From: Candidatus Omnitrophota bacterium
GTDB lineage: Bacteria; Omnitrophota; Gorgyraeia; Gygaellales; Profunditerraquicolaceae
Direction of reading: 5' to 3'
Assembly (NCBI GenBank): GCA_963805065.1
Contig: CAWDSS010000017.1
Span: forward strand, 726-64,725
DNA length: 64,000 nucleotides
In this document: piece by piece, positions 13,119 to 64,000 of the stretch
Layout of the letters: each line of letters begins with the position of its first letter
How positions within the stretch are numbered: position 1 is the first letter of the stretch
The notes under the pieces: generated by a model
The model's database searches: none
Told to the model about the DNA's origin: nothing
The model's input: only the letters and a program-made list of their open reading frames with translations
Position numbers and translations under genes: made by a program

Positions 13119-13923
13119 GATGATTCTTTATTCTATTTCTATATTTCAAATAGTAAGCTATTTTAGCTCGAAGAAAATAATAAACAATTAAAAATTTATT
13201 TATGATTCCTGGGGCATAGATTCTTCTTATTCTTAGTAATTCTTTTCTCCATCTTCTTATGGATGCCTTCTGCCCGCTTTTACTTTGTGGATAAATTCGA
13301 AAGTTTCCTAGTATTTTCGGGATCAGGGCTATTTTAAATTTTTTTCCAATCCGGCAATAAAATTCTGTATCCATGGAATAGTCTAAATCTTCATTAAGAT
13401 AACCCACTTCCTCTAATACAGATTTTCTAAAGAAAACTGTTGGTTGGGGGGGGGTGAATCGACCACAGGCAAACTGCCTGTAATTGAAATCTATTATCTC
13501 TTTTGTAAAAAGAAAATTGCCATTCTCATCAATATAATTAAAATATCCATAAACCATCCCAACATCGGGATTCTTCAAGAAAAAATCCGCAATAATACTT
13601 ACTGTTTCTAGTAGGTAAGTATCATCGGAATTTTGCCATGCCAAAATTTCGCCTGTTGCCATTTTAAATCCTTTATTAATTGCCTGCGTTTGACCGTTAT
13701 CCGGTTCTGATTTCCAGATTATTTTTTTATCATATTTTTTTAATATGTCTAATGTATTGTCCGCCGAAGCTCCGTCTATTACTATGTATTCAATATTGGG
13801 GTAGTCTTGATTCAAGACACTTAAGATTGTTTCCTCGATAAAATTACCTTGATTAAATGAAGGCGTTACTATAGTTACCTTCGGATTTAATAAAATTAAA
13901 TTTTTATTATTTTCCGCTTGCAT
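13099..13923 (-). CDS. Glycosyltransferase family 2
   Basis: VTIVTPSFNQGNFIEETILSVLNQDYPNIEYIVIDGASADNT and a QNSDD acidic motif. Contains the C9 tract listed separately. Confidence 0.85.
   Translation of the reverse strand: MQAENNKNLILLNPKVTIVTPSFNQGNFIEETILSVLNQDYPNIEYIVIDGASADNTLDILKKYDKKIIWKSEPDNGQTQAINKGFKMATGEILAWQNSDDTYLLETVSIIADFFLKNPDVGMVYGYFNYIDENGNFLFTKEIIDFNYRQFACGRFTPPQPTVFFRKSVLEEVGYLNEDLDYSMDTEFYCRIGKKFKIALIPKILGNFRIYPQSKSGQKASIRRWRKELLRIRRIYAPGIINKFLIVYYFLRAKIAYYLKYRNRIKNHLEHQDS
13446..13454 (-). repeat. Homopolymeric C9 tract (G9 on plus strand) inside the GT2 coding sequence
   Basis: Plus strand reads tggttGGGGGGGGGtgaatc. The coding strand reads ttc aCC CCC CCC Caa cca (F-T-P-P-Q-P). 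It is the only G/C run of 9 nt or more that I found in the window. Confidence 0.9.
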
Positions 13924-14006
13924 TTCTTCATGCCTCTCAAGTAAATATTCATATTATTTTTCAATAAACAAAAATATATCTTTTCCAAACTACACCTATA
14001 ATCTTA

Positions 14007-15371
14007 CTAACTATTAATTGTCGATTTTTTTAATATAAACTTTTTCCTAAATAAATAAAATAAAATAATTGAAAACCATAAAGGAGTGCTCTCTAATCCA
14101 TTGGATAATATTGAAAGCATCATCAAGCCAACACACAATATTAGAAAGAACAAATAATCAAAAATATTTCCTTTTATACTCCACCTTACATAAAAACCTG
14201 AACAAATAAAGCCAATAACAAACCCTCCAAACAATACATATAGCATACCAAAATCCCTATACAATCCGTAAATAATATTATATAACGCATTATATTTTTT
14301 TTCTTTGCCATCATCAGTAAACCCTACTGTTGTAAACTCCCAGTGCTTTTCCCTATTATCAAAAACAAGAGAATGAATACTAGGGTCTATTAGTCTAAGT
14401 AATGTCACTACGACACGCTCTATACCACCAATAGAACTAAGGCCATAAGTGTACTGAGTATGTAGTATGCTTTTGGGATCAGACAGCTCCTGGTCAAGGA
14501 GAACAAAACCTGCGGTATGATAATCTATTACATACACTTTAATCAGCTCAAATATTTTTCTATGTCCCGCTCTCTGTACACTAACAAAAAATAACAGAAA
14601 TACTAATATAAGCCCAACTTTTTTTATAAATGCTTTAGCTTTTATAAAATTATGGTTTTTTACAAACAAAGACCCGGAAGATGTAAACAACACAACCATA
14701 ATTATCAACAGATAAAGATAGATAAGTTCCCTTGAAAAATATACCATTGAGTTTAGGATAACTATCAGAATACTTATGAAAATAAATTTATAATTTTTCG
14801 TAATTAGAAATGCACATATTGAATAGTATAAATATGCATATATTATAGATTGAATTACGACACGAAAAAAATAAGCAATACCTTTACTGGGAAATAACTC
14901 CCCTGCACTATGAAAAGTTCTAATTACAACCAACCTATAACTAGTACCATGTGTTAAGACAAGATTAAATCCTTTATATGCATAAAATAACATAAAAGGT
15001 ATCACAATTATTAAACATATAGTAAAAAATATTCCTAATTTTTTTAGTTTTTTAGTATTTTCGTTGGTTTTATCAATTAGGAACTTTGTATTTACTACTG
15101 GCTTATTTTTGTGAATATTCCTCATTCCAACATAGAGAAAACAACCAATTGTATAAAACAATATAAACATACAGGTCAACAAGTTAGTGCGCCAACTCGG
15201 TAAGAATAAGCCGGTTATACTTAAATTTGCAACAAATAGCCATCCTCCCCACCACCATAATATTATAGATACAGGATTAAATAACGACTTATAAATTTTA
15301 TATGACACTGCTGTAAAAAAAAGTATTGCCACAATACCAGCACTAAAATAAATCATTGAAATGCTCCCCAT
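14007..15371 (-). CDS. O-antigen polymerase (Wzy)-like polytopic membrane protein
   Basis: 454 aa, hydrophobic almost throughout with no soluble domain, embedded among glycosyltransferases. Assignment is by context and topology only. Confidence 0.5.
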   Translation of the reverse strand: MGSISMIYFSAGIVAILFFTAVSYKIYKSLFNPVSIILWWWGGWLFVANLSITGLFLPSWRTNLLTCMFILFYTIGCFLYVGMRNIHKNKPVVNTKFLIDKTNENTKKLKKLGIFFTICLIIVIPFMLFYAYKGFNLVLTHGTSYRLVVIRTFHSAGELFPSKGIAYFFRVVIQSIIYAYLYYSICAFLITKNYKFIFISILIVILNSMVYFSRELIYLYLLIIMVVLFTSSGSLFVKNHNFIKAKAFIKKVGLILVFLLFFVSVQRAGHRKIFELIKVYVIDYHTAGFVLLDQELSDPKSILHTQYTYGLSSIGGIERVVVTLLRLIDPSIHSLVFDNREKHWEFTTVGFTDDGKEKKYNALYNIIYGLYRDFGMLYVLFGGFVIGFICSGFYVRWSIKGNIFDYLFFLILCVGLMMLSILSNGLESTPLWFSIILFYLFRKKFILKKSTINS

Positions 15372-15457
15372 TTGTCAAGACACAAAATTGGCAGAAAAAG
15401 TAGATTACTCTCCATAATTTCTTTCATAATCAATACTCTTTTCACAATCAATTTTCT

Positions 15458-16696
15458 TCATACAGATAAAATCTCTTCATAAAGTTTTTTATACCACTTG
15501 GCAACTTTTACCATCTCAAATTCTCTCAAAGCTTTTTCTCTCGCTTTTTGCCTAAGATTATTATAATCAGGATTGTTCAACACCCAATCGATACCTTTTG
15601 CAAGGTCGTCTGTACTAAAGGGTTGGGCAAGGTAACCATTAATCTGCTGCTCAATCATATCGCTATTTCCCCCTATATTGAAAGCAACAACTGGCGTTCC
15701 GCAGGCCAATGGTTCCATGATGGTATTAGAAAGATTTTCTTGCAGACTTGGCACCACCATCACGTCTACTGCACTATAAAGTGTCACTAAACTCACATCG
15801 TCATGCAAATACCCAAGATAGTGAGTTTTAAATCCAAAATTTTGAGGCTCTTTTGGCTCACTACTTCCAAACAGGACAAATTCTATATCTTTGTTTTTGA
15901 GTTTATACAAAGCTTCGCTCAGTTGTGCAAAACCCTTTCGTGGATCGCTTGTCCATCCTATGGCACCAAAAAGAACGAGTTTTTTATCTCGAGAAAGGCT
16001 CCAAAGTCCTCTTGCTTTTTGTGTATCAAATGGTTTAAACACATTTGTATCTATAGTATTTGGAATATTTACAATCCGCCTGTTACCTAAAAGACCACTC
16101 TTAGCGGCACAATCAGTGAGCCATTTACTGGGCCCCACTACCGTGATATTTTTAGTCTTATTATATGTTTTATTTTTTCGTTTGAAGATTCTTCTGCTCA
16201 AATCTTTTTTTTTATCTGAATTAAGTATAGGGCACGCTCCACATTCTTTTTCATATTTACCACAGGAATTGTCATAATGGCATCCTCCGGTAAATGCCCA
16301 CATATCGTGCAACGTCCACACAATCGGAGCTTTTATCTTAGCAATGTCTTCTATGCTTATCATCCCGCCACAAATCCACTGCAGATGGACGATGTCGGGA
16401 TTTATCTCGTTTATCTTATTGACCATACTGCTAAATGGTAGCGATGAGGGGCTAAAAAGTGTCTTGGTTCGCTCTTTGTAAAATCTCACGGGGATAGAGT
16501 CCAAAAACGGTCTAAGTTTATTGAGCTTTTTTTTGACTTTGTCGGTTTCGGCTAAGACGGTATAATCATCACTGCTTTTGCTTTGCACAAGCATTTGAGA
16601 GTCAATGCCTTGAGAGAGCAAAGCCCTATGAAGCCTATAAGCCGCTCTCGCCGCTCCTCCTTGGATGTCTAATGTGTTTACGATAAGGATTTTCAT
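15458..16696 (-). CDS. Glycosyltransferase family 4/GT-B
   Basis: MKILIVNTLDIQGGAARAAYRL N-terminus and C-terminal VVPSLQENLSNTIMEPLACGTPVVAFNIGGNSDMI. Confidence 0.8.
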   Translation of the reverse strand: MKILIVNTLDIQGGAARAAYRLHRALLSQGIDSQMLVQSKSSDDYTVLAETDKVKKKLNKLRPFLDSIPVRFYKERTKTLFSPSSLPFSSMVNKINEINPDIVHLQWICGGMISIEDIAKIKAPIVWTLHDMWAFTGGCHYDNSCGKYEKECGACPILNSDKKKDLSRRIFKRKNKTYNKTKNITVVGPSKWLTDCAAKSGLLGNRRIVNIPNTIDTNVFKPFDTQKARGLWSLSRDKKLVLFGAIGWTSDPRKGFAQLSEALYKLKNKDIEFVLFGSSEPKEPQNFGFKTHYLGYLHDDVSLVTLYSAVDVMVVPSLQENLSNTIMEPLACGTPVVAFNIGGNSDMIEQQINGYLAQPFSTDDLAKGIDWVLNNPDYNNLRQKAREKALREFEMVKVAKWYKKLYEEILSV

Positions 16697-47083: not shown

Positions 47084-48769
47084 TTACTTTTTCTTCTGCT
47101 GCTGATTATTTTGCTTTACCGGTTCTCTCTTGGCAGCCTGATCCCTGCCTAAATTTTGTTCCAATTTGGCTATTTCTTCTGGCGCAAGTTCTCCTTCTTT
47201 TAACACGTGGGCACTTATAAAAATGAGCAAATCCAATTTCGTCTTACTCTCAGTTTCCCTCTCGAAAAATTTTCCTACCCAAGGAAGTTTGTCTAAAATA
47301 GGAATACCTATTGTTTCTTTGCTTCTTTGGTCCGTCAATAAACCACCTAACACTATGGTTTCTCCGTCTTTCATTAAAACCTGAGTCTGGGCTTCCCGTA
47401 CATCGATTATCGGATAATTAATCGTAGAGGTGATTGCGCTGCCCCCTGTTCCTGCGACACTTGTAGCCGGAACGCTTGAAGTCGAGGAAGTAACGCTTGG
47501 ATGTATAATCATATTAATGTAACCTTCTTCGCTTATTTGAGGAACTACATTTAGCCTTATCCCTATCTCCTGATAATAATCCAGGGTTTGCGTCAGACTC
47601 GACCCCGTCTCAGCAGTAGCCGCAGTTAACTGAGAGCTTAAAATAGGCGTATGATACCCAACCAAGATGGAAGCTTCTTGATTATCGATGGTGACGATTC
47701 TGGGAGACGACAATGTATTGGTATGCACATCCTCCTGTAACGCATGCAATACAACTTCAAACTGAGTGCCGGTTAATTTCTTAAACAATAACTCCAGGCC
47801 CGCAGAGTAAGGGTTTGTCCCTGTAACAGCCGTGGTAAGTTCTTGCGGGTTAAAAACACTCGGGGTAGCTTCAGATCCCAGATTTCTTCCGGCAATTGTT
47901 AAACCACTTCCATTCAGGGGTATATCTGTGGGGGCATTCTTATATCCTGCAGCGCCGCTTACACCTGTTCCCCAGTCAAAACCAATATCTTTTAATTTAT
48001 CCACATTAACTTCCATAATCCTGGCCTCAATTAATACCTGTTTCGGTTTTTTATCAATCTGAGGAAGGATTACATTGCGTACCCTATCCAAAGAAGAAGC
48101 GGTATCGGTAATAATCAACGTCTTGGATTTAATAGAAGGCTCGAATTCGGCCTTTTTGGAGACTAAATCACCGGTGGCAGACCTTTCAATGGAAATCGTC
48201 TCATTTTTAGCCGCGAGTTCCGATTCTTTTATCAAGCCTCCTCCTTTTGTCTCGGATTTTCCTATTTGAAATGTCCCGAATTGCCAGCCCTTTTGCCCCC
48301 GCGTGTACAATACGGATATTTTTCCTCGGGTGGATAAAAGCGGAATCAAAATCTTTTCCGCATCCTGGGCATCAAGGTATTTAAGAGTAAAAATTTCTGT
48401 CTGCAGCGGCTCTTCTGCCTGTATCTTGGAAATATTTTCCATTTTTGTCACCAGGATTACATTGCCCTGCCTTTGATATCCAAAGCCATAAGTTTTAAGA
48501 ATTACATCCAAGGCCCTATCCCACGGCACGTCCACAAGCCTTATGCTAACATTTCCAATAACATCCGGCGTTGTTACGATATTTATGCCGGATTTGTAAG
48601 AGATTATCTTTAAGACATTCTGGATGTCGGCGTCCTTAAAATCCAGGGTGACATTTTCAGAAACAGCCAGCTCAGGTTGGGCTACGGCCCCCGTGTTATC
48701 CGGGGCTTGAGCAAATGCAAAAGTGGACAAGAAAACCAGGTACGTAAAATATAAAAACACTTTTTTCAT
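47084..48769 (-). CDS. pilQ: Type IV pilus secretin
   Basis: Signal peptide (LSTFAFAQA) and a C-terminal secretin domain (TLSSPRIVTIDNQEASILVG ... IPILDKLPWVGKFF). Follows pilMNOP. Confidence 0.85.
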   Translation of the reverse strand: MKKVFLYFTYLVFLSTFAFAQAPDNTGAVAQPELAVSENVTLDFKDADIQNVLKIISYKSGINIVTTPDVIGNVSIRLVDVPWDRALDVILKTYGFGYQRQGNVILVTKMENISKIQAEEPLQTEIFTLKYLDAQDAEKILIPLLSTRGKISVLYTRGQKGWQFGTFQIGKSETKGGGLIKESELAAKNETISIERSATGDLVSKKAEFEPSIKSKTLIITDTASSLDRVRNVILPQIDKKPKQVLIEARIMEVNVDKLKDIGFDWGTGVSGAAGYKNAPTDIPLNGSGLTIAGRNLGSEATPSVFNPQELTTAVTGTNPYSAGLELLFKKLTGTQFEVVLHALQEDVHTNTLSSPRIVTIDNQEASILVGYHTPILSSQLTAATAETGSSLTQTLDYYQEIGIRLNVVPQISEEGYINMIIHPSVTSSTSSVPATSVAGTGGSAITSTINYPIIDVREAQTQVLMKDGETIVLGGLLTDQRSKETIGIPILDKLPWVGKFFERETESKTKLDLLIFISAHVLKEGELAPEEIAKLEQNLGRDQAAKREPVKQNNQQQKKK

Positions 48770-55672: not shown

Positions 55673-56089
55673 TTAACGGTCAGCTATCAATGTAACAAGT
55701 TGAGTGGGTGAATTGGTACAGTTGCCGTTTGCATCTTCCACTCCGAAAATCCTATTATTTTGTTTCCAACAAACGCTTATTGTAACCTGGTAGAGCACCG
55801 GATTCGTAACATTAACAGAAACTACTACGCTATTTGCTATATTTAGAGCAGTTAGATTGGGCACTTTGGGAGGATACATGAATCCGGGGATCTGCGGAAA
55901 GGGAGTGTTACGTATCTGTTCCATTAATCCCTGGGCATAATTGGTGGCAATATTTACAATTTTTGAGGTGTTAAGAAAACCCGTGCAACCCACATATGCT
56001 GCCATTATTCCACAGAGCGCAATGGCGACTACCACGGTTGCCAGCAACGCTTCTGCCAAAGTGAAACCCTTTTGAGATGTTTTACGCAT
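55673..56089 (-). CDS. Minor pilin (PilV-like), prepilin N-terminal domain
   Basis: SQKG/FTLAEALLATVVVAIALCGI. Confidence 0.7.
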   Translation of the reverse strand: MRKTSQKGFTLAEALLATVVVAIALCGIMAAYVGCTGFLNTSKIVNIATNYAQGLMEQIRNTPFPQIPGFMYPPKVPNLTALNIANSVVVSVNVTNPVLYQVTISVCWKQNNRIFGVEDANGNCTNSPTQLVTLIADR

Positions 56090-56162: not shown

Positions 56163-56193
56163 ATAAAAAAGCTCCAAGGCAAACCTTAGAGCT
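56161..56193 (-). terminator. Rho-independent terminator downstream of mtaB
   Basis: The minus-strand RNA reads AGCUCUAAGG-UUUG-CCUUGGAGCU followed by UUUUUUAUUU. The single non-Watson-Crick position is a U-G wobble on the minus strand and a C-A mismatch on the plus strand. Confidence 0.7.
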
Positions 56194-56344
56194 TACTACC
56201 TCCTTGGCAGTGCAGCCAGCTGAGTTTCAGCTCTGTCACTTTGCGTCCCAAGATTGCTCCTGGTTTGCCTTTATCAATGAGTATATCCTTAACCTGTTCT
56301 CTATAATAAATATACACTATATTTTGTTGCTTTTCAAGGCTATA

Positions 56345-57532
56345 TTACACTATGTTTTGAGCTCTAATAAGGCAGGAAACCAGCTGATTTTTTAAGTTTT
56401 TACCGGATTTAATACGAATTTTTAAGTAATTATCCGTGTGACCTTCCCATAAACCAGATTTTTCCTTTGTTTCAAATAACACATTCATACGTTTATTGAA
56501 AAATCTTCTCTTATATTTTGACGACAAATCAGAACAAATTTTTCCCAATACCAAACTCCTTTGTTTTATTACCAAAGGACTAACTTTACCTGTGAGATTA
56601 TTTGCTTGTGTGCCCTGCCTCTGGGAATAAGGAAATACATGCACTTTAAGAGGTAAAATCTTTCTCATTAAATCTACGGTGTTGGCAAAATTTTTTTCGC
56701 TTTCACCCGGAAAACCCACCAAGCAATCAGTAGTGATACTCAACCCTGAAACACGCCTGTTTAATTTCCTGATCAGCCTAAGGTAATCATCCCGGGAATA
56801 CTTTCTGTTCATTTTCTTAAGGATTTCGTTGTCTCCGCTTTGTATAGGAATGTGTAAATGCCTGCACAATTTTTTTGATTTTGAAATTTTATCGATTAAT
56901 TCATCTGTGATGTCTCCTGCTTCTATAGAGCTTAACCTTATGCGTAGCAGGCCTGTAATTTCTTCTAATTTCAAGATTAGCGTAACAAGAGAAGTCTTTT
57001 GCTTTAGGTCTTTGCCGTATGAGCCAAGGTTTATGCCTGTCAGCACTAATTCTTTAAAACCTTTTTTAACCAGAAAATTCGCCTCATTTAAAACCTCCTC
57101 CAACTGCCTGCTGCGGGACCTGCCTCTTACCAAGGGCACCTTGCAATATGAACAAAAATTATCGCAGCCATCCTGGATCTTCAAGAATGCGCGCGTGTGG
57201 CCGCAGAAATCGCTTATACCGTCGGGAAAAAATCTTTTGCTGATAATTGCATCTATTAGCCTTATCTTGGATAAAGACACGCAATCTTTTTCCACAAGGC
57301 AGCCGGTAACGATAACTTTTGCCTTTGGGTTTTCTCTTTTCGCCCTGCGCACAAGGCCAAGAGACTCTGAATCTGCCCTGTGCGTTACTGTGCAGGTATT
57401 AATCAGATAAACTTGCGCAGGCTTCCCGTCAGAGATTTCTTTAAAGCCTTTCTGACTAAACCGCTCTCTGATACTCTGCGTATCGTATTGATTAACCTTG
57501 CAACCCAATGTATAAAATTTTATAGTCTTCAT
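56345..57532 (-). CDS. mtaB: tRNA t6A37 methylthiotransferase MtaB
   Basis: FYTLGCKVNQYDTQ and INTCTVTHRADSE (N-terminal cluster), IQDGCDNFCSYCKVP (radical SAM CxxxCxxC), and a C-terminal TRAM-like region. Confidence 0.87.
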   Translation of the reverse strand: MKTIKFYTLGCKVNQYDTQSIRERFSQKGFKEISDGKPAQVYLINTCTVTHRADSESLGLVRRAKRENPKAKVIVTGCLVEKDCVSLSKIRLIDAIISKRFFPDGISDFCGHTRAFLKIQDGCDNFCSYCKVPLVRGRSRSRQLEEVLNEANFLVKKGFKELVLTGINLGSYGKDLKQKTSLVTLILKLEEITGLLRIRLSSIEAGDITDELIDKISKSKKLCRHLHIPIQSGDNEILKKMNRKYSRDDYLRLIRKLNRRVSGLSITTDCLVGFPGESEKNFANTVDLMRKILPLKVHVFPYSQRQGTQANNLTGKVSPLVIKQRSLVLGKICSDLSSKYKRRFFNKRMNVLFETKEKSGLWEGHTDNYLKIRIKSGKNLKNQLVSCLIRAQNIV

Positions 57533-57539
57533 ATAATTT

Positions 57540-57754
57540 AATGAATCTGCCGGTTTTCTCGCTCAGCACGATTTTTTAACGCCAATGATCTTTCGTTCTT
57601 CGGCGGCTGCTGAACTCGTCGCATTTGCTCTAGCAAATGCTCCTCAAACAGCATCGCCGTGCCAGTGTTGTCGCTTCGCTCCACTGGCATTCCCTCATCA
57701 CTCAAGCTCCATTGGCTAAAATCGTGATTCGCTCGAAAATCCGGCAGATTCATT
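57540..57754. ncRNA. Candidate structured RNA/element, domain 1 (about 215 nt closed by a 14-bp helix)
   Basis: AATGAATCTGCCGG (57540-53) pairs with CCGGCAGATTCATT (57741-54). Nested helices are TTTTC/GAAAA, CACGATTTT/AAAATCGTG and GCCAATG/CATTGGC. Internal hairpins are GCATTTGC-TCTA-GCAAATGC and GCCAGTG-14nt-CACTGGC. GC-rich, with no convincing ORF. Confidence 0.3.
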
Positions 57755-57768
57755 TTCCAGCTTTCCGA

Positions 57769-57976
57769 GCGCCTGCTCTATTAGCGGATGGCTTGGCTGA
57801 TGTTTCGAGGGACATGGAGGCAAGGAACGGGCAAGGTTTCCGCATCCGGCTCCTACATAAAAAGAACGGACTTATACACGGCCCGGATGCGGAAGAGCGA
57901 CGCAGCCGACCTGAGCGAAGCATTTCCACGCTGGGGAAATGCGAGCGTTCCCGAGAAACACAGACAAGGCAGGCGC
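57769..57976. ncRNA. Candidate structured RNA/element, domain 2 (about 208 nt closed by GCGCCTGC/GCAGGCGC)
   Basis: Closing helix 57769-76 / 57969-76. GTTTCGAGGGA (57802-12) pairs with TTCCCGAGAAAC (57948-59). There is a 12-bp hairpin TTCCGCATCCGG (57838-49) / CCGGATGCGGAA (57883-94), and a hairpin GCATTTCC/GGAAATGC. Confidence 0.25.
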
Positions 57977-58006
57977 GTAGTGCAGGACGCGAGAAGAACA
58001 ATAAGG

Positions 58007-58744
58007 TTATTGAGGACTTAAGTATAACTTAATGAAACTCGCTACGGTCACTGCAGCTGTTTCAACTCGCAAGACAGATTCACCTAGCGAAACTGCCACA
58101 AACCCATTTCTTTTAGCCAAATCAATTTCCTCGTCGGCAAAATCGCCTTCCGGCCCGATAAGCACTAAAATATTTTTAGGCTTGCTGTTAAGCGCATCTT
58201 TCAAGAATTTTCTTTTTCCTGGTAAGGTAGGAATTAATTTTAAATCATAATCTTTCGAACCTAAAATGACCTTTTTTATATCGCTTACAACATCAATGGC
58301 CGGAACGGTAGTACGCTGGCTCTGCTGGCTGGCGCTTAAAGCTATGCGTTTCCAACGTTCATGCAGCAGGGATTCCTTGTGTTTATCTAACTTCACAACC
58401 ACGCGCTCTGTTTTTAAAGGAATAATCCTATCCACGCCTAACTGGGTCAATTTATCGACAATATCCGACATATTGGATTTTTTGGGGATTGCGCAGGCGA
58501 TAGTCAAATTAATCTTATTTTGTTTATTTACGGACAATCGTTTGTTTTTAATCTGCAGGGTGATGGTGTTTTGGATTTTTTCAATAATACAATCATACTC
58601 ATTGCCATTTTTATCAACGATAGTCAGCTTATCTTTGGGTTTAAGCCGCAAAACATCCCTGATATGATGAGCCTGATTATAGTCAACAATAGTTATCGTA
58701 TTTTGAAAAATATTGCTTTGGGTAGAAAAAAACCTGTTCATCAA
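58007..58744 (-). CDS. rsmE: 16S rRNA (uracil1498-N3)-methyltransferase
   Basis: MNRFF start, PUA-like N-terminus, C-terminal SPOUT block LIGPEGDFADEEI...VSLGESVLRVETAAV. Confidence 0.87.
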   Translation of the reverse strand: MMNRFFSTQSNIFQNTITIVDYNQAHHIRDVLRLKPKDKLTIVDKNGNEYDCIIEKIQNTITLQIKNKRLSVNKQNKINLTIACAIPKKSNMSDIVDKLTQLGVDRIIPLKTERVVVKLDKHKESLLHERWKRIALSASQQSQRTTVPAIDVVSDIKKVILGSKDYDLKLIPTLPGKRKFLKDALNSKPKNILVLIGPEGDFADEEIDLAKRNGFVAVSLGESVLRVETAAVTVASFIKLYLSPQ

Positions 58745-59391
58745 AAGCTCCTTAAGATTAATTGAACACCTAGATAAATAATTATAATGCCGAATACAAA
58801 ATTAAAAATGCGGCTATAGTTATTTTTATACATAACCGCCTTGGTTACAGCGCTGCTAAAAATAACAAGTATCAAAAGGGGCGAGACAAAAGTCCCCAAT
58901 CCAAAGAACAAACTGTACAATAAAGCATCGACCCAGTGTTTAGCAACCAGGCCTATGTAAGACAAAACTGAAATCAGCGGCGCGCAGGGAAGAATTCCGA
59001 CTATTAATCCGAAAATTAATACGGTCTTAGAATCTTTGTTTAAGAAAAACTCCTGGAACTTTTTACAAAACAAATGCTTCGTATCTTTGCCGAAAGCAAC
59101 TAATACTCCTATTACAGTAATAAATAAGCCGCCCGATATAAAAAAATACTTTGCTGCCGATGCAAATTTATATTCAATAACCGCCTGGCCTAACAGGAAA
59201 ACGAGTATACCAAGGCACATATAAATAAATATGCGGCTCAAGGAAAAAAGCAGGTACACTAAAATGCTCCTAATTACGTTCTTGTTTGTCCCGGCGGTAT
59301 ACGATATTAAAAGCGGGCCGCAGCTGGCCATGCAAGGCCCCAAACCAAACGATAGCCCCAGTAAAAATGAGCTAAGTATTATTTTTGTCAT
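58741..59391 (-). CDS. CcdA/DsbD-superfamily (DsbD_2-type) membrane protein
   Basis: Six predicted TM segments. Cys motifs sit in TM1 (GLGPCMASCGPLL) and TM4 (GILPCAPLIS), like the thiol-disulfide electron conduits CcdA/DsbD. Confidence 0.6.
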   Translation of the reverse strand: MTKIILSSFLLGLSFGLGPCMASCGPLLISYTAGTNKNVIRSILVYLLFSLSRIFIYMCLGILVFLLGQAVIEYKFASAAKYFFISGGLFITVIGVLVAFGKDTKHLFCKKFQEFFLNKDSKTVLIFGLIVGILPCAPLISVLSYIGLVAKHWVDALLYSLFFGLGTFVSPLLILVIFSSAVTKAVMYKNNYSRIFNFVFGIIIIYLGVQLILRSF

Positions 59392-59397
59392 TAAAAA

Positions 59398-60957
59398 TTA
59401 TTTTTCTGAAAAAACTTCGGCAGTAAAGATATAGATATCCGTTGATTTATCTTTCCAGGCTAGAGGTGGAAGGCCGGCCTTATGAGAACATAGCGTGGAT
59501 AAAAATTCTTCTTTACTCCATCCCGTCTCCGTTGCCACTTGCGGAAGGAAAACGCCGCTGTTGAAACCTTTTCTTACCAAAACCCCATGAACGCCTAATT
59601 GGATTTTATCAACTGAGTCTATTTTTTCCAATGGCGATAAAACCGATATTTCAATCTCTATTGTTTCAAGTTCTGATAAGTTTACCCTTGAAAACCTTGG
59701 GTCACCTGTAGCCGCCTCCACAGCCATATCCCTTACTGTAAGGTAAAGCGGCTGGCTTCCTACTAAATTTCCTATGCATCCGCGTAATTCCCCATGTTCA
59801 TTCAGGGTTACAAAAGCACTCATCTGTTTAAGCAAAACAGGATCTTGCTCGCTCACTGTTAATTTTTTACCGGTCTTAAGATACGTTTCAATGGAATTTC
59901 TTGCAATTTGCAATAATTTATTTCTTTGTTCGGTATTTAACATGGTTATTTCTCCTTTGGGCTGGTCTATTGCGCAACTAGTGTAGCCTACAGTCCAAAC
60001 TCCCTTTTTCTTATTCCCGGTTACTACAGCAGAATTTGTATGATTTAATACATTACAAATATTATGCCCGAGTTCTTTTGATAAAATTATCGTGCAAACC
60101 ACTCCAAAACCGCCGCAAAGCTGGAGTTTCCCTTCTCTCAAACCGTAATACAAACCTTCAGCATCCATGTTCTTTATAAATGACAAGGTCAAATTATCTA
60201 CTCTCTCTGCTTCCTCGTAATCGTATCCGTGATACATATCAGTTGAGACAATAACCAGCACATCTTTACGTTCACCTATAGCGTCTTTAAGTAATGCTGC
60301 TAATTTCTTACAAGTCGCAAGCGCACAATCGCCCATAATAATCGGCACAATCTTATACCCTGAAAGAGACTTTTGTAAAAACGGTAGTTCTACTTCTACT
60401 GAATGTTCTTTTTCAAACGCCAGCGACTCAAAAATAATATCGTCTGATTTATTGAGCAATTTTTGCGTAAAATCATCATCAATTGTTATGTCGCCTAACG
60501 GAGTACGGAAGACCCCCCTGGGATATATAGAAATGCCGCTAAACCCGTAATAATGGCTTGGCCCGATTACAATCACTGTTTTGTAGGGCTTGCCTGTTAT
60601 CAACTTGTAACCAAAAGCTGCAGTCTGCCCTGAATAGCCATAACCTGCATGGGGAGAAATCAAAGCAAATATTTCGCCTTTTACTGGTTGAGGATTGGCC
60701 TTGGCAAAGAAAGTATCAAGCATCCCGGATAATTCTTTTGGATTATCGGGATAGAATGCGCCTGCTACATTGGGGTATTTAATATCCTGGGCGAAACAGA
60801 AAAAGTTAAAAGGTAAAAGCAAAAAGGCAAAAGTACAAATTAAAAGTAAAAATTTTAGCTTTTTGCCTAAACTTTTTCCTTTTGGCTTTTTACTTTTCAC
60901 TTTAATTCCATACTCCTTCAATTTTTTCTCCGCAAAACTTACATCTGCCGTTTTCAA
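59398..60957 (-). CDS. Fused AmmeMemoRadiSam system protein B (Memo-like) + protein A (AMMECR1) with N-terminal signal-like sequence
   Basis: Memo block FALISPHAGYGYSGQTAA. AMMECR1 blocks GELRGCIGNLVG and GVFLPQV. The N-terminus is KKLKFLLLICTFAFLLLPFNFFCFA/QD. An alternative GTG start at 60900 sits 1 nt after the upstream stop. Confidence 0.85.
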   Translation of the reverse strand: MKTADVSFAEKKLKEYGIKVKSKKPKGKSLGKKLKFLLLICTFAFLLLPFNFFCFAQDIKYPNVAGAFYPDNPKELSGMLDTFFAKANPQPVKGEIFALISPHAGYGYSGQTAAFGYKLITGKPYKTVIVIGPSHYYGFSGISIYPRGVFRTPLGDITIDDDFTQKLLNKSDDIIFESLAFEKEHSVEVELPFLQKSLSGYKIVPIIMGDCALATCKKLAALLKDAIGERKDVLVIVSTDMYHGYDYEEAERVDNLTLSFIKNMDAEGLYYGLREGKLQLCGGFGVVCTIILSKELGHNICNVLNHTNSAVVTGNKKKGVWTVGYTSCAIDQPKGEITMLNTEQRNKLLQIARNSIETYLKTGKKLTVSEQDPVLLKQMSAFVTLNEHGELRGCIGNLVGSQPLYLTVRDMAVEAATGDPRFSRVNLSELETIEIEISVLSPLEKIDSVDKIQLGVHGVLVRKGFNSGVFLPQVATETGWSKEEFLSTLCSHKAGLPPLAWKDKSTDIYIFTAEVFSEK

Positions 60958-62002
60958 TATTATTCTGCATCACAAAATAGCCCTTGCGTTCAATTAAAAG
61001 TTTTTTGCATCTGGGGCAATACGTATTCTCTGCATCATTGCCTGCTACATTGCCAATGTAAACAAATTTTAGCCCGCAAGCTAAGGCGATTGCTCTAGCC
61101 TTTTCCAGGGTTTCAACGGGAGTGGCATTAAGGCTAGTGAGTTTATACATGGGGAAAAAACGCAAGAAATGTATTGGCGTATCTACGCCTAAATTTTCTT
61201 TTATCCATAGGCACATTTTCCTAATAGTATCCGGGTCATCATTGTATCCGGGTAAGACGACGTTAGTTATCTCTAAAAATACCTGTTCTTCTTTTAAAAT
61301 TTTTAAGGCCTTAAGCACAGGAGGCAGGGTTGCATCTGATATTTTGACATAAAAATCCTGCGTAAACCCTTTTAAATCAATATCGGCAGCATCAAGGTAT
61401 TTTGCCAATTGCCTAAGGGGCTCTTCGTTGATGTAGCCTGAGGAATGCATGACGTTTCTTATACCTTCTTTCCTGGCTAATTTTGCAATCTCAATCATAT
61501 ATTCATAAAATATCGTAGGCTCTGTATAGGTGTAGGCTATGGTGGGAGAGCCTGATGCTTTTACCTTTTTTATTATTTGTTTTGGCTCCAGGTAAAAATA
61601 GAGTGTTTCTTCCGGCCTGGCTTGAGATATATCCCAATTCCGGCAAAACTTACATTTCAAATTACAGCCTACGGTAGCTAGTGAAAAGGCTGTTGTAGAA
61701 GGAAGGAAATGGAAGAAGGGCTTTTTTTCTATAGGGTCAATATGCATTATAACTGCTTTTGCATAAACCAAAGTATATAATGAGCCTGCGCGGTTCTCCC
61801 TTACTCCACAATAACCTCTTTTACCCAAGGCTATAGTGCAGTTTCTAGGGCAAAGCACACATTGCACTATTTTTTTATCCAACTTATTATAAAATAGGGC
61901 TTCATGCGCACTTTGCCATACAGAAGAATCAGGCAAACGAAAACAGAGTAAAATTAAGATGAGTATAATTGAAATAGTCCATATCCATCTTAGAATTTTC
62001 AT
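60902..62002 (-). CDS. AmmeMemoRadiSam system radical SAM enzyme, paralog 1, with N-terminal TM extension
   Basis: HEALFYNKLDKKIVQCVLCPRNCTIALGKRGYCGVRENR (family N-terminal Cys motif) and GCNLKCKFCRNW (CxxxCxxC). Preceded by MKILRWIWTISIILILILLCF. Confidence 0.85.
   Translation of the reverse strand: MKILRWIWTISIILILILLCFRLPDSSVWQSAHEALFYNKLDKKIVQCVLCPRNCTIALGKRGYCGVRENRAGSLYTLVYAKAVIMHIDPIEKKPFFHFLPSTTAFSLATVGCNLKCKFCRNWDISQARPEETLYFYLEPKQIIKKVKASGSPTIAYTYTEPTIFYEYMIEIAKLARKEGIRNVMHSSGYINEEPLRQLAKYLDAADIDLKGFTQDFYVKISDATLPPVLKALKILKEEQVFLEITNVVLPGYNDDPDTIRKMCLWIKENLGVDTPIHFLRFFPMYKLTSLNATPVETLEKARAIALACGLKFVYIGNVAGNDAENTYCPRCKKLLIERKGYFVMQNNIENGRCKFCGEKIEGVWN
61362..61556. repeat. 195-nt near-identical tract shared with 62959-63153 (paralog 1 side)
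   Basis: By-eye alignment gives 4 differences in 195 nt (one T/C, one TGA/AGC triplet). The flanking paralogous sequence is much more diverged. Confidence 0.85.
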
Positions 62003-62043
62003 GTTAATCTCATTCAGCGAACTTTTAAACTTTGCAATTAACC

Positions 62044-62475
62044 CTAAGAACCTTTACATCCCGCCCCTTTCCCTGTTGTCCCCTCCACCCATGGATCAGT
62101 ATCAGTAACCTCCATAAACCATTCACGGCCGAGAGGGTTAGTTTTACGCACCCCCCACACACAACCTTCATCATCTACGCCATAATACCAATTACTGACA
62201 GACCCCGGAGGCAAATTAAGATTTAAATTTGTATTTATATTATCTGCACCTTCTTTAAATTCAGGATCCGGCCCAGAGGGATAGTATGTGCCAAATTTTA
62301 CATAATAATTTTTTTCAGCAGCGTGCATTAATCTAAGATTTGACTGCACCTCCATGTCATAAAGTTTTTCCCTTTTAGGGCCATAACTGACTATCGCTAC
62401 TGTAGCCAAAATGCCTATAATAACAACAGTAATTATAATCTCTATTAGGGTAACTGACTTTAACTTCTTCATCAA
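62044..62475 (-). CDS. Pilin-like protein with non-canonical prepilin leader
   Basis: MMKKLKS/VTLIEIIITVVIIGILATVAIV. Glu5 is present, but Ser replaces Gly at -1 and Val replaces Phe at +1. Located between the two rSAM paralogs. Confidence 0.65.
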   Translation of the reverse strand: MMKKLKSVTLIEIIITVVIIGILATVAIVSYGPKREKLYDMEVQSNLRLMHAAEKNYYVKFGTYYPSGPDPEFKEGADNINTNLNLNLPPGSVSNWYYGVDDEGCVWGVRKTNPLGREWFMEVTDTDPWVEGTTGKGAGCKGS

Positions 62476-62498
62476 TTTCCTCCTTTCTAATTATGCCA

Positions 62499-63599
62499 TC
62501 ACTTCCAAATTCCCGTTATTTTCTCTCCACAGAACTTGCATTTACCATCTTGAACATTATTCTGCATCACAAAATTGCCCTTACGTTCAATTAAAAGCCT
62601 CTTGCATCTCGGGCAATAGGTATTTTCTGATAAGGTTTGGCCCACGTTTCCTAAGTAAACAAATTTAAGGCCGCTTGCTAAAGCGATGGCTCTCGCTTTC
62701 TCCATGGTTTCTACAGGAGTAGGATTGAGGCTGGTAAGTTTATACATTGGGAAAAAACGGGAAAAATGTAACGGCGTATCGCTTCCTAAATTTTCTTTTA
62801 TCCATAGGCACATTTTCCTGATACTATCCGGGTCATCATTGTATCCGGGTAAAATCAAGTTGGTTATTTCTATAAATACCCCTTCTTGTTTTAAAATCTT
62901 CAAAGTCTTAAGCACCGGCTCTAATGTAGCTTCTGAAATCTTGGAATAGTAATCGTCAGTAAACCCTTTTAAATCAATATCGGCAGCATCAAGGTATTTT
63001 GCCAACTGCCTAAGGGGCTCTTCGTTGATGTAGCCAGCGGAATGCATGACGTTTCTTATACCTTCTTTCCTGGCTAATTTTGCAATCTCAATCATATATT
63101 CATAAAATATCGTAGGCTCTGTATAGGTGTAGGCTATGGTGGGAGAGCCTGATTGTTTTACTTTCTTTATTAAATCCGCAGGCGTAAGGTAAACATATTG
63201 CACATCTTCTGGTTTTGCCTGGGATATTTCCCAGTTCTGGCAAAATTTACATTTTAAATTACACCCCGTTGTTGCAATTGAAAAGGCTGTTGTAGAAGGA
63301 AGGAAATGAAAAAAGGGCTTTTTCTCTATGGGGTCAATATGGATAGCAACCGGCTTGGCAAAAACTAATGTGTATAATACGCCATCACGGTTTTCTCTAA
63401 CACCGCAATAGCCTCTCTTTCCAGCAGGGATTACGCATTGCCGTGGACAAAGCACGCATTGCACTATTTTTTTATCGAGCTTGTTATAAAACAGGGCTTC
63501 ATGCAATTTTTCCTGAGTGAAAGCCAAGCAAGGATAACGGCAAAAATAGGCCAGGCTGAATAAAATCAACACTCCCAATAACAATCTTAGAATCTTCAT
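62499..63599 (-). CDS. AmmeMemoRadiSam system radical SAM enzyme, paralog 2 (start moved to ATG at 63599)
   Basis: Same motifs as paralog 1 (CVLCPRQCVIPAGKRGYCGVRENR; GCNLKCKFCQNW). At 366 aa it is identical in length to paralog 1. The track start at 63689 would overlap the tRNA gene. Confidence 0.85.
   Translation of the reverse strand: MKILRLLLGVLILFSLAYFCRYPCLAFTQEKLHEALFYNKLDKKIVQCVLCPRQCVIPAGKRGYCGVRENRDGVLYTLVFAKPVAIHIDPIEKKPFFHFLPSTTAFSIATTGCNLKCKFCQNWEISQAKPEDVQYVYLTPADLIKKVKQSGSPTIAYTYTEPTIFYEYMIEIAKLARKEGIRNVMHSAGYINEEPLRQLAKYLDAADIDLKGFTDDYYSKISEATLEPVLKTLKILKQEGVFIEITNLILPGYNDDPDSIRKMCLWIKENLGSDTPLHFSRFFPMYKLTSLNPTPVETMEKARAIALASGLKFVYLGNVGQTLSENTYCPRCKRLLIERKGNFVMQNNVQDGKCKFCGEKITGIWK
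62959..63153. repeat. 195-nt near-identical tract shared with 61362-61556 (paralog 2 side)
   Basis: See the paired feature. Encodes the identical peptide run SGSPTIAYTYTEPTIFYEYMIEIAKLARKEGIRNVMHS.GYINEEPLRQLAKYLDAADIDLKGFT. Confidence 0.85.
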
Positions 63600-63639: not shown

Positions 63640-63712
63640 TGGACCCGAGCGGATTCGAACCGCTGACCTCCGCAATGCGAATGCGGCATTCTCCCAACTG
63701 AACTACGGGCCC
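63640..63712 (-). tRNA. tRNA-Ala (anticodon CGC)
   Basis: Reverse complement: GGGCCCG-TA-GTTC-AGTTGGGA-GAAT-G-CCGCA-TTCGCAT-TGCGG-AGGTC-AGCGG-TTCGAAT-CCGCT-CGGGTCC-A. A 73-nt cloverleaf with the G3-U70 alanine identity pair. CCA is not encoded. Confidence 0.93.
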
Positions 63713-63781: not shown

Positions 63782-64000
63782 TTAATTAATGGAAACAGAT
63801 GGCATGCCGATTAAGGTATCTTTAGTGATACATGGATTATCAACGCCTGGCGCCTGAGAAGGATTCCAGCAGGAGCTAATTCTAACGGTTACATAATTAT
63901 TAGTTAGTAGCGTACCTGCGGGCTTTGCAGGCTGGAGACTGAAGCTGGAGATATTGCTGGCAATGGTATCATTTGCTACAGTACCCCACGCATCAACACA
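63782..64000 (-). CDS. 3' end of an unidentified CDS entering from the right edge
   Basis: Hand translation in the frame set by nt 64000: CVDAWGTVANDTIASNISSFSLQPAKPAGTLLTNNYVTVRISSCWNPSQAPGVDNPCITKDTLIGMPSVSIN*. It is open for 72 codons, with the stop at 63784-63782. No recognisable family. Confidence 0.35.
   Translation of the reverse strand, partial: CVDAWGTVANDTIASNISSFSLQPAKPAGTLLTNNYVTVRISSCWNPSQAPGVDNPCITKDTLIGMPSVSIN

Follow-up and report, generated by a model that had tools for sequence, protein, structure and literature searches.

AmmeMemoRadiSam systems and the Omnitrophota locus

The three-part AmmeMemoRadiSam system, composed of a Memo-like protein (B), an AMMECR1 protein (A) and a radical S-adenosylmethionine (SAM) enzyme (rSAM), is conserved from archaea to humans (MEMO1, AMMECR1). 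No described function for the trio was found in the literature. The canonical form occurs in archaea and some bacteria and corresponds to the protein families TIGR04335, TIGR04336 and TIGR04337. The motifs RGCIG and DPRF of AMMECR1 have been described, and the protein was proposed to act in RNA modification (PMC2034487). Here we analyzed a stretch of 64,000 nucleotides from a Candidatus Omnitrophota bacterium (assembly GCA_963805065.1, contig CAWDSS010000017.1, positions 726 to 64,725), referred to as the window, which encodes such a system. Like the canonical system, the window proteins pass the family cut-offs, their genes are adjacent and the catalytic motifs are kept; in contrast to it, every enzyme carries a leader, Memo and AMMECR1 are fused, the radical SAM gene is duplicated and a DsbD_2 gene is attached. 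The locus is a variant of a known system: the trio is known, but we found no paper describing it with leaders and a DsbD_2 partner. Judging from sequence, we consider it a member of an export-type branch of AmmeMemoRadiSam that most likely works on the outer face of the cytoplasmic membrane or beyond it, a reading to which we assign a probability of roughly 55%.

Every gene of the region lies on the minus strand, in the order pseudopilin-like gene end, tRNA-Ala, rSAM1, pilin-like gene, rSAM2, Memo-AMMECR1 fusion, DsbD_2 gene, rsmE, spacer and mtaB. An earlier, sequence-only reading of this DNA had placed both radical SAM genes, the pilin-like gene, the fusion and the DsbD_2 gene, and the positions and strand of all five were confirmed. 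The three AmmeMemoRadiSam components are encoded together in the window, and the same adjacency is found in many related loci. Neither a paper describing twin-arginine translocation (Tat) or Sec leaders on AmmeMemoRadiSam nor a model pairing the system with a DsbD_2 or NapH-FMN partner was found in a literature coverage that did not extend to Burroughs et al. 2019 (JBC), a comparative study of Memo-AMMECR1 systems whose abstract is said to tie Memo to nucleotide-base and isoprenoid modification.

Family assignment of the enzymes

Both radical SAM proteins have 366 aa and score above the curated TIGR04337 cut-off of 220: rSAM1 (62499..63599, minus strand), encoded after the tRNA, reaches 371.9 bits, and rSAM2 (60902..62002, minus strand), the more diverged copy abutting the Memo-AMMECR1 gene, reaches 374.7 bits. 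The cluster motif CX3CX2C reads CNLKCKFC in both copies. rSAM1 furthermore contains an N-terminal Cx2Cx3C..C and a C-terminal CxxC..CxxC motif. The closest solved structure is the pyruvate formate-lyase activating enzyme (PFL-AE, PDB 3c8f / 8fo0), with which the window enzyme shares the radical SAM core (phmmer E 2.4e-8, residues 111-280). PFL-AE, in contrast, is cytoplasmic and leaderless and has neither of these additional cysteine motifs, and the window enzyme scores far below the cut-offs of the PFL-AE family models.

The third gene (59398..60900, minus strand) encodes Memo fused to AMMECR1, with a length of 500 aa counted from a GTG start. This one polypeptide passes both TIGR04336 (246.4 bits, cut-off 26) and TIGR04335 (179.9 bits, cut-off 99), and it matches the Pfam families Memo (2e-58) and AMMECR1 (1.5e-56). 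The RGCIG and DPRF motifs as well as the Memo metal-site residues are kept. The same fusion was found in about 35 related loci. One further locus (L069, 9944-12388) contains a single, leaderless open reading frame (ORF) of 815 aa that comprises radical SAM, Memo and AMMECR1 domains; this triple fusion is independent support for the three domains working together.

Hydrophobic leaders precede all three enzymes

N-termini were examined by Kyte-Doolittle hydropathy in 19-residue windows (KD19), and leader classes were assigned with hydropathy and motif (regular expression) rules devised here, which include a hydrophobicity threshold and RK motifs. In both radical SAM copies, the first 33 residues consist of a short basic stretch followed by a strongly hydrophobic stretch (rSAM1, MKILRLLLGVLILFSLAYFCRYPCLAFTQEKLH, 63501..63599, minus strand; rSAM2, MKILRWIWTISIILILILLCFRLPDSSVWQSAH, 61904..62002, minus strand). 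The first ~30 residues reach KD19 values of 2.0-2.5, with a maximum of 2.53 in rSAM2, and the TIGR04337 profile alignment begins only at residue 37. Thus, the extra transmembrane-like segment of about 30 residues, noted earlier ahead of both radical SAM domains, is present. The fusion starts with the signal-peptide-like leader (M)KSKKPKGKSLGKKLKFLLLICTFAFLLLPFNFFCFA/QD (60790..60900, minus strand); its residues 13-38 reach a KD19 of 2.4, and the Memo domain follows directly after CFA/QD, in agreement with the proposal that B and A are fused behind a Sec-type signal-like sequence. By the heuristic rules, the n-h-c layout of a Sec-like leader is clear in all three enzymes, with candidate cleavage sites at CFA/QD in the fusion and CLA/FT in rSAM1. 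The rSAM1 leader is without a twin arginine, and neither radical SAM copy, starting with MKILRW and MKILRL, respectively, matches the Tat motif S/T-R-R-x-F-L-K.

The 120 best homologs of the radical SAM enzyme, all of similar length, were surveyed for leaders; the names given to the homologs in their source databases place the window in Candidatus Omnitrophota. Of the 120, 116 Omnitrophota homologs could be classified automatically. All 116 have an n-h-c leader, a typical one being MKNLLKLILGLFFLFGLIAACFYLPNITAQ. An AXA-like site is present in 100 of the 116 leaders, a twin arginine in only two. At the end of the h-region 102 of the 116 carry a cysteine, which is usually continued by Phe-x-Leu-Pro (C-F-Y-L-P); in the window this position corresponds to 61939-61944 in rSAM2, which has the C-F-x-L-P motif common to most of the clade, and to 63539-63541 in rSAM1 (cysteine only). 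A canonical lipobox is found in 51 of the 116 homologs but in neither of the window copies. The conserved cysteine could serve for lipidation or position a thiol at the surface of the membrane, close to the cysteines of the DsbD_2 protein.

Since the leaders of the radical SAM enzymes are kept in all 116 classified homologs, they are not start-codon artifacts. Their sequence varies while the architecture is kept, as expected of translated and selected leaders. An internal TTG start that would remove the leaders was rejected, the leaders being conserved as coding sequence. For rSAM1, a longer ORF of 396 aa begins inside the tRNA-Ala gene (63640-63712); this start was rejected as well, and translation is taken to begin at the ATG at 63599. 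For the fusion we chose the GTG at 60900, which has a GGAG 12 nt upstream and lies 1 nt from the stop codon of rSAM2 (60902-60904). The alternative TTG at 60957 also takes in the leader, and a longer overlapping start of this kind is the choice of gene callers in relatives. The extensions thus stay after start-codon re-annotation, and the claim that every component of this locus carries a hydrophobic leader was confirmed by hydropathy.

Leader classes in related species

A scan with one genome per species yielded the 80 most similar loci, which come from many phyla and are 45-67% identical. In these loci ORFs were called and matched to the window proteins, and the N-termini of the radical SAM enzymes were classified. 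A Tat leader was assigned in 45 loci, a Sec-like leader in 13 and no leader in 22, with one N-terminus cut by a contig end. The Tat class fits the textbook consensus closely (lsRReFLk, itRRdFLk, mtRReFVk). Leaders of the Sec-like class are very hydrophobic and have no Tat consensus; they occur in Omnitrophota, Auribacterota, UBP3, a metagenome-assembled genome labeled Chlamydiae and others. The leaderless class consists of archaea (among them Methanococcoides and Bathyarchaeia), Geobacteraceae, Thermodesulfatator and others. In agreement with the Tat assignment, a search with a Desulfobacterales member returned records named 'AmmeMemoRadiSam system radical SAM enzyme' by NCBI that start with MKKISRRxFLYCSAA. 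Where the N-terminus of the Memo-AMMECR1 fusion was readable, a hydrophobic leader was present in 34 of 35 cases, many ending in a lipobox cysteine.

N-terminal extensions are thus widespread (45 Tat and 13 Sec-like leaders in the 80 species loci, 34 of the 35 readable fusions), and export-type versions are the majority among the nearest relatives. By sequence, the leaders are a widespread trait and not a peculiarity of the window locus. The sequence-only reading had taken the members of the family for soluble proteins, which fits the leaderless class only.

The radical SAM enzymes with Tat leaders (Desulfobacterales, Bacteroidota, Acidobacteriota, Ignavibacteriota and others) are 46-58% identical to the window enzymes in the catalytic domain and have the same set of cysteines. 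Their loci resemble the window in combining an export leader on the radical SAM enzyme with a Memo-AMMECR1 partner that has a Sec or lipobox signal. They differ in the leader itself, which has SRRxFLK and a moderately hydrophobic h-region, whereas the window leaders have no twin arginine and a very hydrophobic h-region.

A DsbD_2 gene accompanies Sec-like leaders

Immediately downstream of the fusion (58741..59391, minus strand) lies the gene for a membrane protein of the DsbD_2/CcdA type. It matches PF13386 (DsbD_2) with 80.4 bits (gathering threshold (GA) 24.9) and PF02683 (DsbD_TM) with 35.4 bits (GA 27.1), and its hydropathy shows about six hydrophobic spans, so that the earlier description as a six-transmembrane CcdA/DsbD-type protein stands. 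Cysteines are located in the motifs GPCxxSCGP in transmembrane helix 1 (TM1) and LPCAPL in TM4; across 27 DsbD_2 homologs C24 and C136 never vary, and conservation of C20 is at least 90%. The protein shares with CcdA/DsbD transporters the Pfam matches, the approximately six transmembrane helices and the TM1 and TM4 cysteines in Pro-Cys motifs. It differs from them by a Cx3C with two cysteines in TM1, and from the sequence no thioredoxin-like acceptor appears to be encoded nearby.

In the relatives that form a clade with the window, the order rSAM, Memo-AMMECR1, DsbD_2, rsmE, mtaB is kept down to 45% DsbD_2 identity, and the DsbD_2 gene adjoins the system in every clade relative examined. Synteny alone is little proof of partnership, because the block also holds rsmE and mtaB, which we take to be neighbors in Bacillus as well (yqeU-yqeV). 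However, the DsbD_2 gene is found near the radical SAM gene in four arrangements and in several lineages: after Memo-AMMECR1 in the window clade, directly 3' of the radical SAM gene with no Memo-AMMECR1 between (L007, L010, L016), directly before it (L037), and as the N-terminal part of a DsbD_2-FMN_bind-Fer4_5 fusion directly upstream of it (L015, L019, L021). In L020, the gene lies between a spermidine-synthase-like gene and Memo-AMMECR1. Three distant DsbD_2 homologs were looked up, and all three are located within the same system.

The presence of DsbD_2 was determined with a profile built from the DsbD_2 sequences of these loci. A DsbD_2-domain gene lies by the radical SAM gene in 11 of the 13 Sec-like loci, and in none of the 67 others (Fisher p = 7e-12, kinship ignored). 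The two Sec-like loci without it are L009 and L006, the contig of the latter stopping about 1 kb after the radical SAM gene. No Tat-type locus of the 80 has a DsbD_2-domain gene, in contrast to the window, and this includes the Omnitrophota loci with a Tat-type enzyme (L008, L017). The gene therefore tracks leader type rather than phylum. The survey of homologs thus found the neighborhood conserved, and these sequence data support the DsbD/CcdA-like gene as a genuine partner of the system.

Basic loops of membrane proteins face the cytoplasmic side (positive-inside rule). Loops 1, 3 and 5 of the DsbD_2 protein are enriched in Lys and Arg. The topology predicted from this is N-out/C-out, and in the fusions the FMN domain would then lie outside the cytoplasm. 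During cytochrome c maturation by system II, CcdA keeps the cysteines of Sec-exported apocytochromes reduced; by analogy, DsbD_2 may keep the cysteines of a Sec-exported apoprotein reduced. The fusions in L015, L019 and L021 carry the flavinylation motif SGAT/TGAT in their FMN domains and CxxxCP motifs in their Fer4_5 parts, and in both features they resemble NosR/NapH-like modules. In a study by Meheust et al. (2021, PMC8238504), NapH-like proteins with an FMN domain were described as modules bringing electrons to extracytosolic enzymes; neither radical SAM nor Memo or AMMECR1 is mentioned there as a partner. The window DsbD_2 protein differs from these modules in being stand-alone, with no FMN or Fe-S domains.

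Duplication of the radical SAM gene and the pilin-like gene

The two radical SAM copies are 78% identical in protein sequence, and a duplicated radical SAM gene with a pilin-like gene between the copies, as proposed earlier, was confirmed. Their DNA is ~75% identical, yet a tract of 115 nt is identical and ~200 nt are nearly identical (61400-61560 in rSAM2, 62997-63157 in rSAM1, codons about 151-205). This indicates gene conversion between the copies. Outside the conversion tract rSAM1 is 83% identical to the single copies of the nearest relatives and 79% identical to rSAM2; a recent tandem duplication as the full account of the pair was therefore rejected. rSAM1 holds the ancestral position after the tRNA. 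Two leader-bearing copies were found in no relative examined; the second copy in L017 is leaderless.

The gene between the copies (62044..62472, minus strand), preceded by an AGGAGG ribosome-binding site, encodes a minor pseudopilin-like protein of 142 aa counted from the ATG, with the class III leader MKKLKS/VTLIE. The N_methyl match (PF07963) is 21.3 against a GA of 21.2, TIGR02532 stays below its cut-off, and weak matches to GspG and the PilA N-terminus were obtained. The protein shares with type II secretion system (T2SS) and type IV minor pseudopilins the class III leader, Glu at +5 and the hydrophobic N-terminal helix. It differs from typical pilins by Ser instead of Gly at -1 and Val instead of Phe at +1, and by the displacement of its gene into the radical SAM operon. 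The leader had been called atypical, but the minor pseudopilins of this lineage inside T2SS-like clusters have leaders such as KTS/VTLIE, NKS/LTLME and KA/FSLIE, with Ser or Ala at -1 as the usual residue.

In the window clade the gene order is secretin, GspE, GspF, four or five pseudopilins, tRNA-Ala, rSAM, fusion, DsbD_2. The last 219 bases of the window (63782..64000, minus strand, running off the window) encode the C-terminus of the last pseudopilin of this T2SS-like cluster; their translation matches the gene upstream of tRNA-Ala in L090 (57% identity, E 3e-20), L086 (6e-13) and L089. The embedded pilin is a full-length homolog of the second pseudopilin upstream of the radical SAM gene in L084, L086, L087 and L005 (E 1e-16 to 1e-20), and we regard it as a paralog of that member of the neighboring T2SS-like cluster. 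In none of the relatives examined is a pilin located inside the radical SAM operon, and pilin genes flank the radical SAM gene only in the window clade, L005, L007 and L017. No pilin was found nearby in seven other Omnitrophota loci or in more than 60 non-Omnitrophota loci with the same system, and a metagenome scan with the pilin gave a single weak relative (38% identity over 79 residues). The simplest history suggested by these sequences is a tandem duplication of the segment from pseudopilin B to rSAM, after which the genes in between and the second tRNA would have been lost. The pilin gene would then be a passenger of a segmental duplication with a later internal deletion, and it is best explained as a by-product of this lineage-specific event, not as a substrate.

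A second set of pilus-related genes, a cluster comprising pseudopilin, PilM/N/O and secretin (from 55673-56089 to 47084-48769), is present elsewhere in the window. Directly upstream of it is a c-di-GMP-I-GGC riboswitch (56202-56278, minus strand, 61.1 bits against a gathering score of 59), which precedes a terminator-like hairpin of 11 bp that has a T tail (56169-56194). This pilus or T2SS-like operon looks to be controlled by c-di-GMP.

Where the system may act

Leaders and leader classes, gene associations and motifs are what the sequences show; from these we infer topology, export route and electron flow as follows. The Memo-AMMECR1 fusion would be exported by Sec and cleaved near CFA/QD. 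Both radical SAM paralogs would be inserted N-in/C-out by their leaders, with the catalytic domains facing the periplasm as in the Tat-exported homologs; the leaders themselves may be removed, carry a lipid anchor or stay in place as anchors. The CcdA-like DsbD_2 protein would move reducing equivalents across the membrane via its conserved membrane-embedded cysteines, and it could keep the ~11 cluster-ligand cysteines of the radical SAM enzyme, together with the catalytic cysteine of AMMECR1, reduced, or feed electrons. In three other lineages, DsbD_2 is fused to a NapH-like Fe-S module as well as a flavinylated FMN domain, and this fusion may replace flavodoxin as the reductant. The substrate would be an envelope-associated molecule, not RNA. 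A membrane-tethered or extracytoplasmic system, which the sequence-only reading had suggested, remains the best reading of the leaders, the Tat signals of the homologs and the exported partners.

Several points weigh against export. Sec moves unfolded chains, and we know of neither iron-sulfur (Fe-S) cluster assembly nor SAM supply outside the cytoplasm; a radical SAM enzyme that carries two or three clusters and is exported by Sec would therefore have no biochemical precedent. The leader classes rest on hydropathy and regular expression rules rather than on trained predictors, the 80 loci, being those nearest to the query, are a biased sample of the family, and the correlation with DsbD_2 is uncorrected for shared ancestry, most positive loci being Omnitrophota. 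The AlphaFold2 model of the DsbD_2 protein has a pLDDT of 67.8, and a Foldseek search of the PDB with it gave no significant match and did not recover CcdA; the best matches (NqrE/NqrD, TM 0.42) have E values of at least 0.9 and are too weak as evidence. NCBI (and JGI) name the DsbD_2 subfamily 'sulfite exporter TauE/SafE family protein', and no thioredoxin-like periplasmic partner was found among the annotated operon genes. That the radical SAM chemistry itself is truly extracytoplasmic, with the enzyme delivered by Tat in most phyla and by a Sec-type leader together with a DsbD_2 conduit (or a DsbD_2-FMN-NapH fusion) here, is accordingly put forward as a tentative proposal that is somewhat more doubtful than export-type membership as such.

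The cofactor problem would disappear if the leaders were uncleaved anchors that tether cytoplasmic enzymes to the membrane's inner face (N-out/C-in), with DsbD_2 as a membrane partner or a transporter of substrate or product. This is the main rival to export. The inner face offers Fe-S assembly, SAM and flavodoxin, and the radical SAM enzymes keep all cluster cysteines, which fits maturation in the cytoplasm; moreover, the leaders are without twin arginine, their h-regions are as hydrophobic as transmembrane helices (KD 2.0-3.5), and the cysteine at the helix end in 102 of the 116 homologs could mark a retained, functional helix. However, the positive charges precede the helix (MKxLLK...), which predicts N-in/C-out, and the AXA-like sites and lipoboxes counted above also speak against anchors. 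At the homologous position, 45 related species have a Tat signal, which exports the domain, the Memo-AMMECR1 partner bears classical signal peptides or lipoboxes, and the flavinylated FMN domains fused to DsbD_2 are extracytosolic modules. Retained anchors are therefore disfavored, and we consider them unlikely.

Export would lose its proposed redox partner if DsbD_2 were functionally unrelated, a generic TauE/CcdA-like exporter or cytochrome c biogenesis factor carried along by synteny like rsmE and mtaB. The syntenic block, kept to 45% DsbD_2 identity, clearly includes unrelated housekeeping genes, and the exporter name and the missing thioredoxin-like partner point the same way. The three other arrangements flanking the radical SAM gene are without rsmE and mtaB, however, and include the FMN_bind/NapH-like fusion in other phyla; together with the absence of DsbD_2 from all 67 Tat-type or leaderless loci and the location of all three distant homologs looked up, they make mere synteny a quite improbable explanation. 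Slightly less probable still is the idea, raised by the sequence-only reading, that the pilin-like protein is the substrate, with a pseudopilin of the neighboring T2SS or type IV pilus-like machinery as the target of the duplicated radical SAM enzymes and the exported Memo-AMMECR1. The intact pilin ORF with its strong ribosome-binding site lies between the radical SAM genes, pseudopilin clusters are found just upstream of rSAM in the window clade, L005, L007 and L017, and the globular domains of pseudopilins are periplasmic and thus within reach of exported enzymes. Yet no relative has a pilin inside the operon, the tRNA gene parts the pseudopilin cluster from rSAM in the clade, and seven other Omnitrophota loci and more than 60 loci of other phyla do without a nearby pilin, while segmental duplication accounts for the arrangement. 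As pilins are near rSAM solely in a few Omnitrophota loci, the idea comes down to a lineage-restricted proximity.

Flanking genes and other recurrent neighbors

The tRNA-Ala(CGC) gene (63640..63712, minus strand) was identified with ARAGORN and Rfam. A tRNA-Ala lies directly upstream of rSAM also in L001, L005, L084, L086, L087, L089, L090, L092 and L094, and it marks the ancestral 5' boundary of the radical SAM operon. In a scan for promoters and terminators sites were no commoner than expected by chance; one promoter-like site matching 10 of 12 positions lies between the tRNA and rSAM1. Downstream of DsbD_2 follows rsmE (58007..58744, minus strand, TIGR00046 178 bits), encoding the 16S rRNA m3U1498 methyltransferase; this gene is a syntenic neighbor and probably belongs to a separate housekeeping module. 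The gene mtaB (56345..57532, minus strand, TIGR01579 425.5 bits) encodes the tRNA ms2t6A methylthiotransferase and is likewise a syntenic neighbor. In L001, an HxsD gene and two radical SAM genes are located just downstream of mtaB (13341-16311); these look like the HXS anti-phage system described previously (PMC13128918) and are unrelated to the findings on the window locus.

The window has a spacer of 474 nt (57533-58006, minus strand) between rsmE and mtaB, two genes that in relatives are abutting or overlapping; its GC content is 52.5%, compared to 39.5% for the window. The minus-strand RNA folds at -187.9 kcal/mol (z = -5.8, 100 shuffles). No Rfam match at E <= 1 was obtained, and no second copy was found in the window or the fetched loci. 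The spacer may represent a structured RNA or what is left of an inserted element.

All-against-all clustering of the ORFs in the 80 loci was used to find recurrent neighbors. The largest cluster spans 44 loci from many phyla. Its large members have 649-803 aa, and of the eight checked with Pfam, seven are polytopic and contain a spermidine-synthase domain (PF01564; PRK03612-like) in their central part; examples are L047 7663-9813, L010 3492-5792, L024 11027-13273 and L041 12550-14958 (minus strand). Of four smaller members, three are the DsbD_2-FMN-NapH fusions and one (L037) is a DsbD_2 ORF that stands alone. Among the Tat-type loci, 27 have the polytopic spermidine-synthase-like protein nearby. 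A DUF362 gene (PF04015) lies immediately upstream of the radical SAM gene in 11 of the Tat-type loci, which belong to Acidobacteriota, Desulfobacterota and related groups (L022 8704-9777, L041 8656-9723 and nine other loci). Neither gene is present in the window. Judging by its recurrence beside export-type AmmeMemoRadiSam genes, the spermidine-synthase-like membrane protein may belong to the exported branch as a fourth component and may point to the chemistry of this branch.

Implications for the AmmeMemoRadiSam family

A role in RNA modification, as proposed for AMMECR1 (PMC2034487), does not fit exported proteins, and the leaders argue against this hypothesis for the export-type members. 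The pairing of Sec-like leader and DsbD_2 provides a concrete model of how a radical SAM enzyme could be kept and reduced outside the cytoplasm. It also presents a paradox, namely an Fe-S enzyme behind a Sec-type leader. If radical SAM chemistry is indeed extracytoplasmic, this would move the Memo/AMMECR1/rSAM system from RNA modification to envelope biochemistry. In the large bacterial branch with export signals, the search for the substrate is narrowed to the cell envelope.

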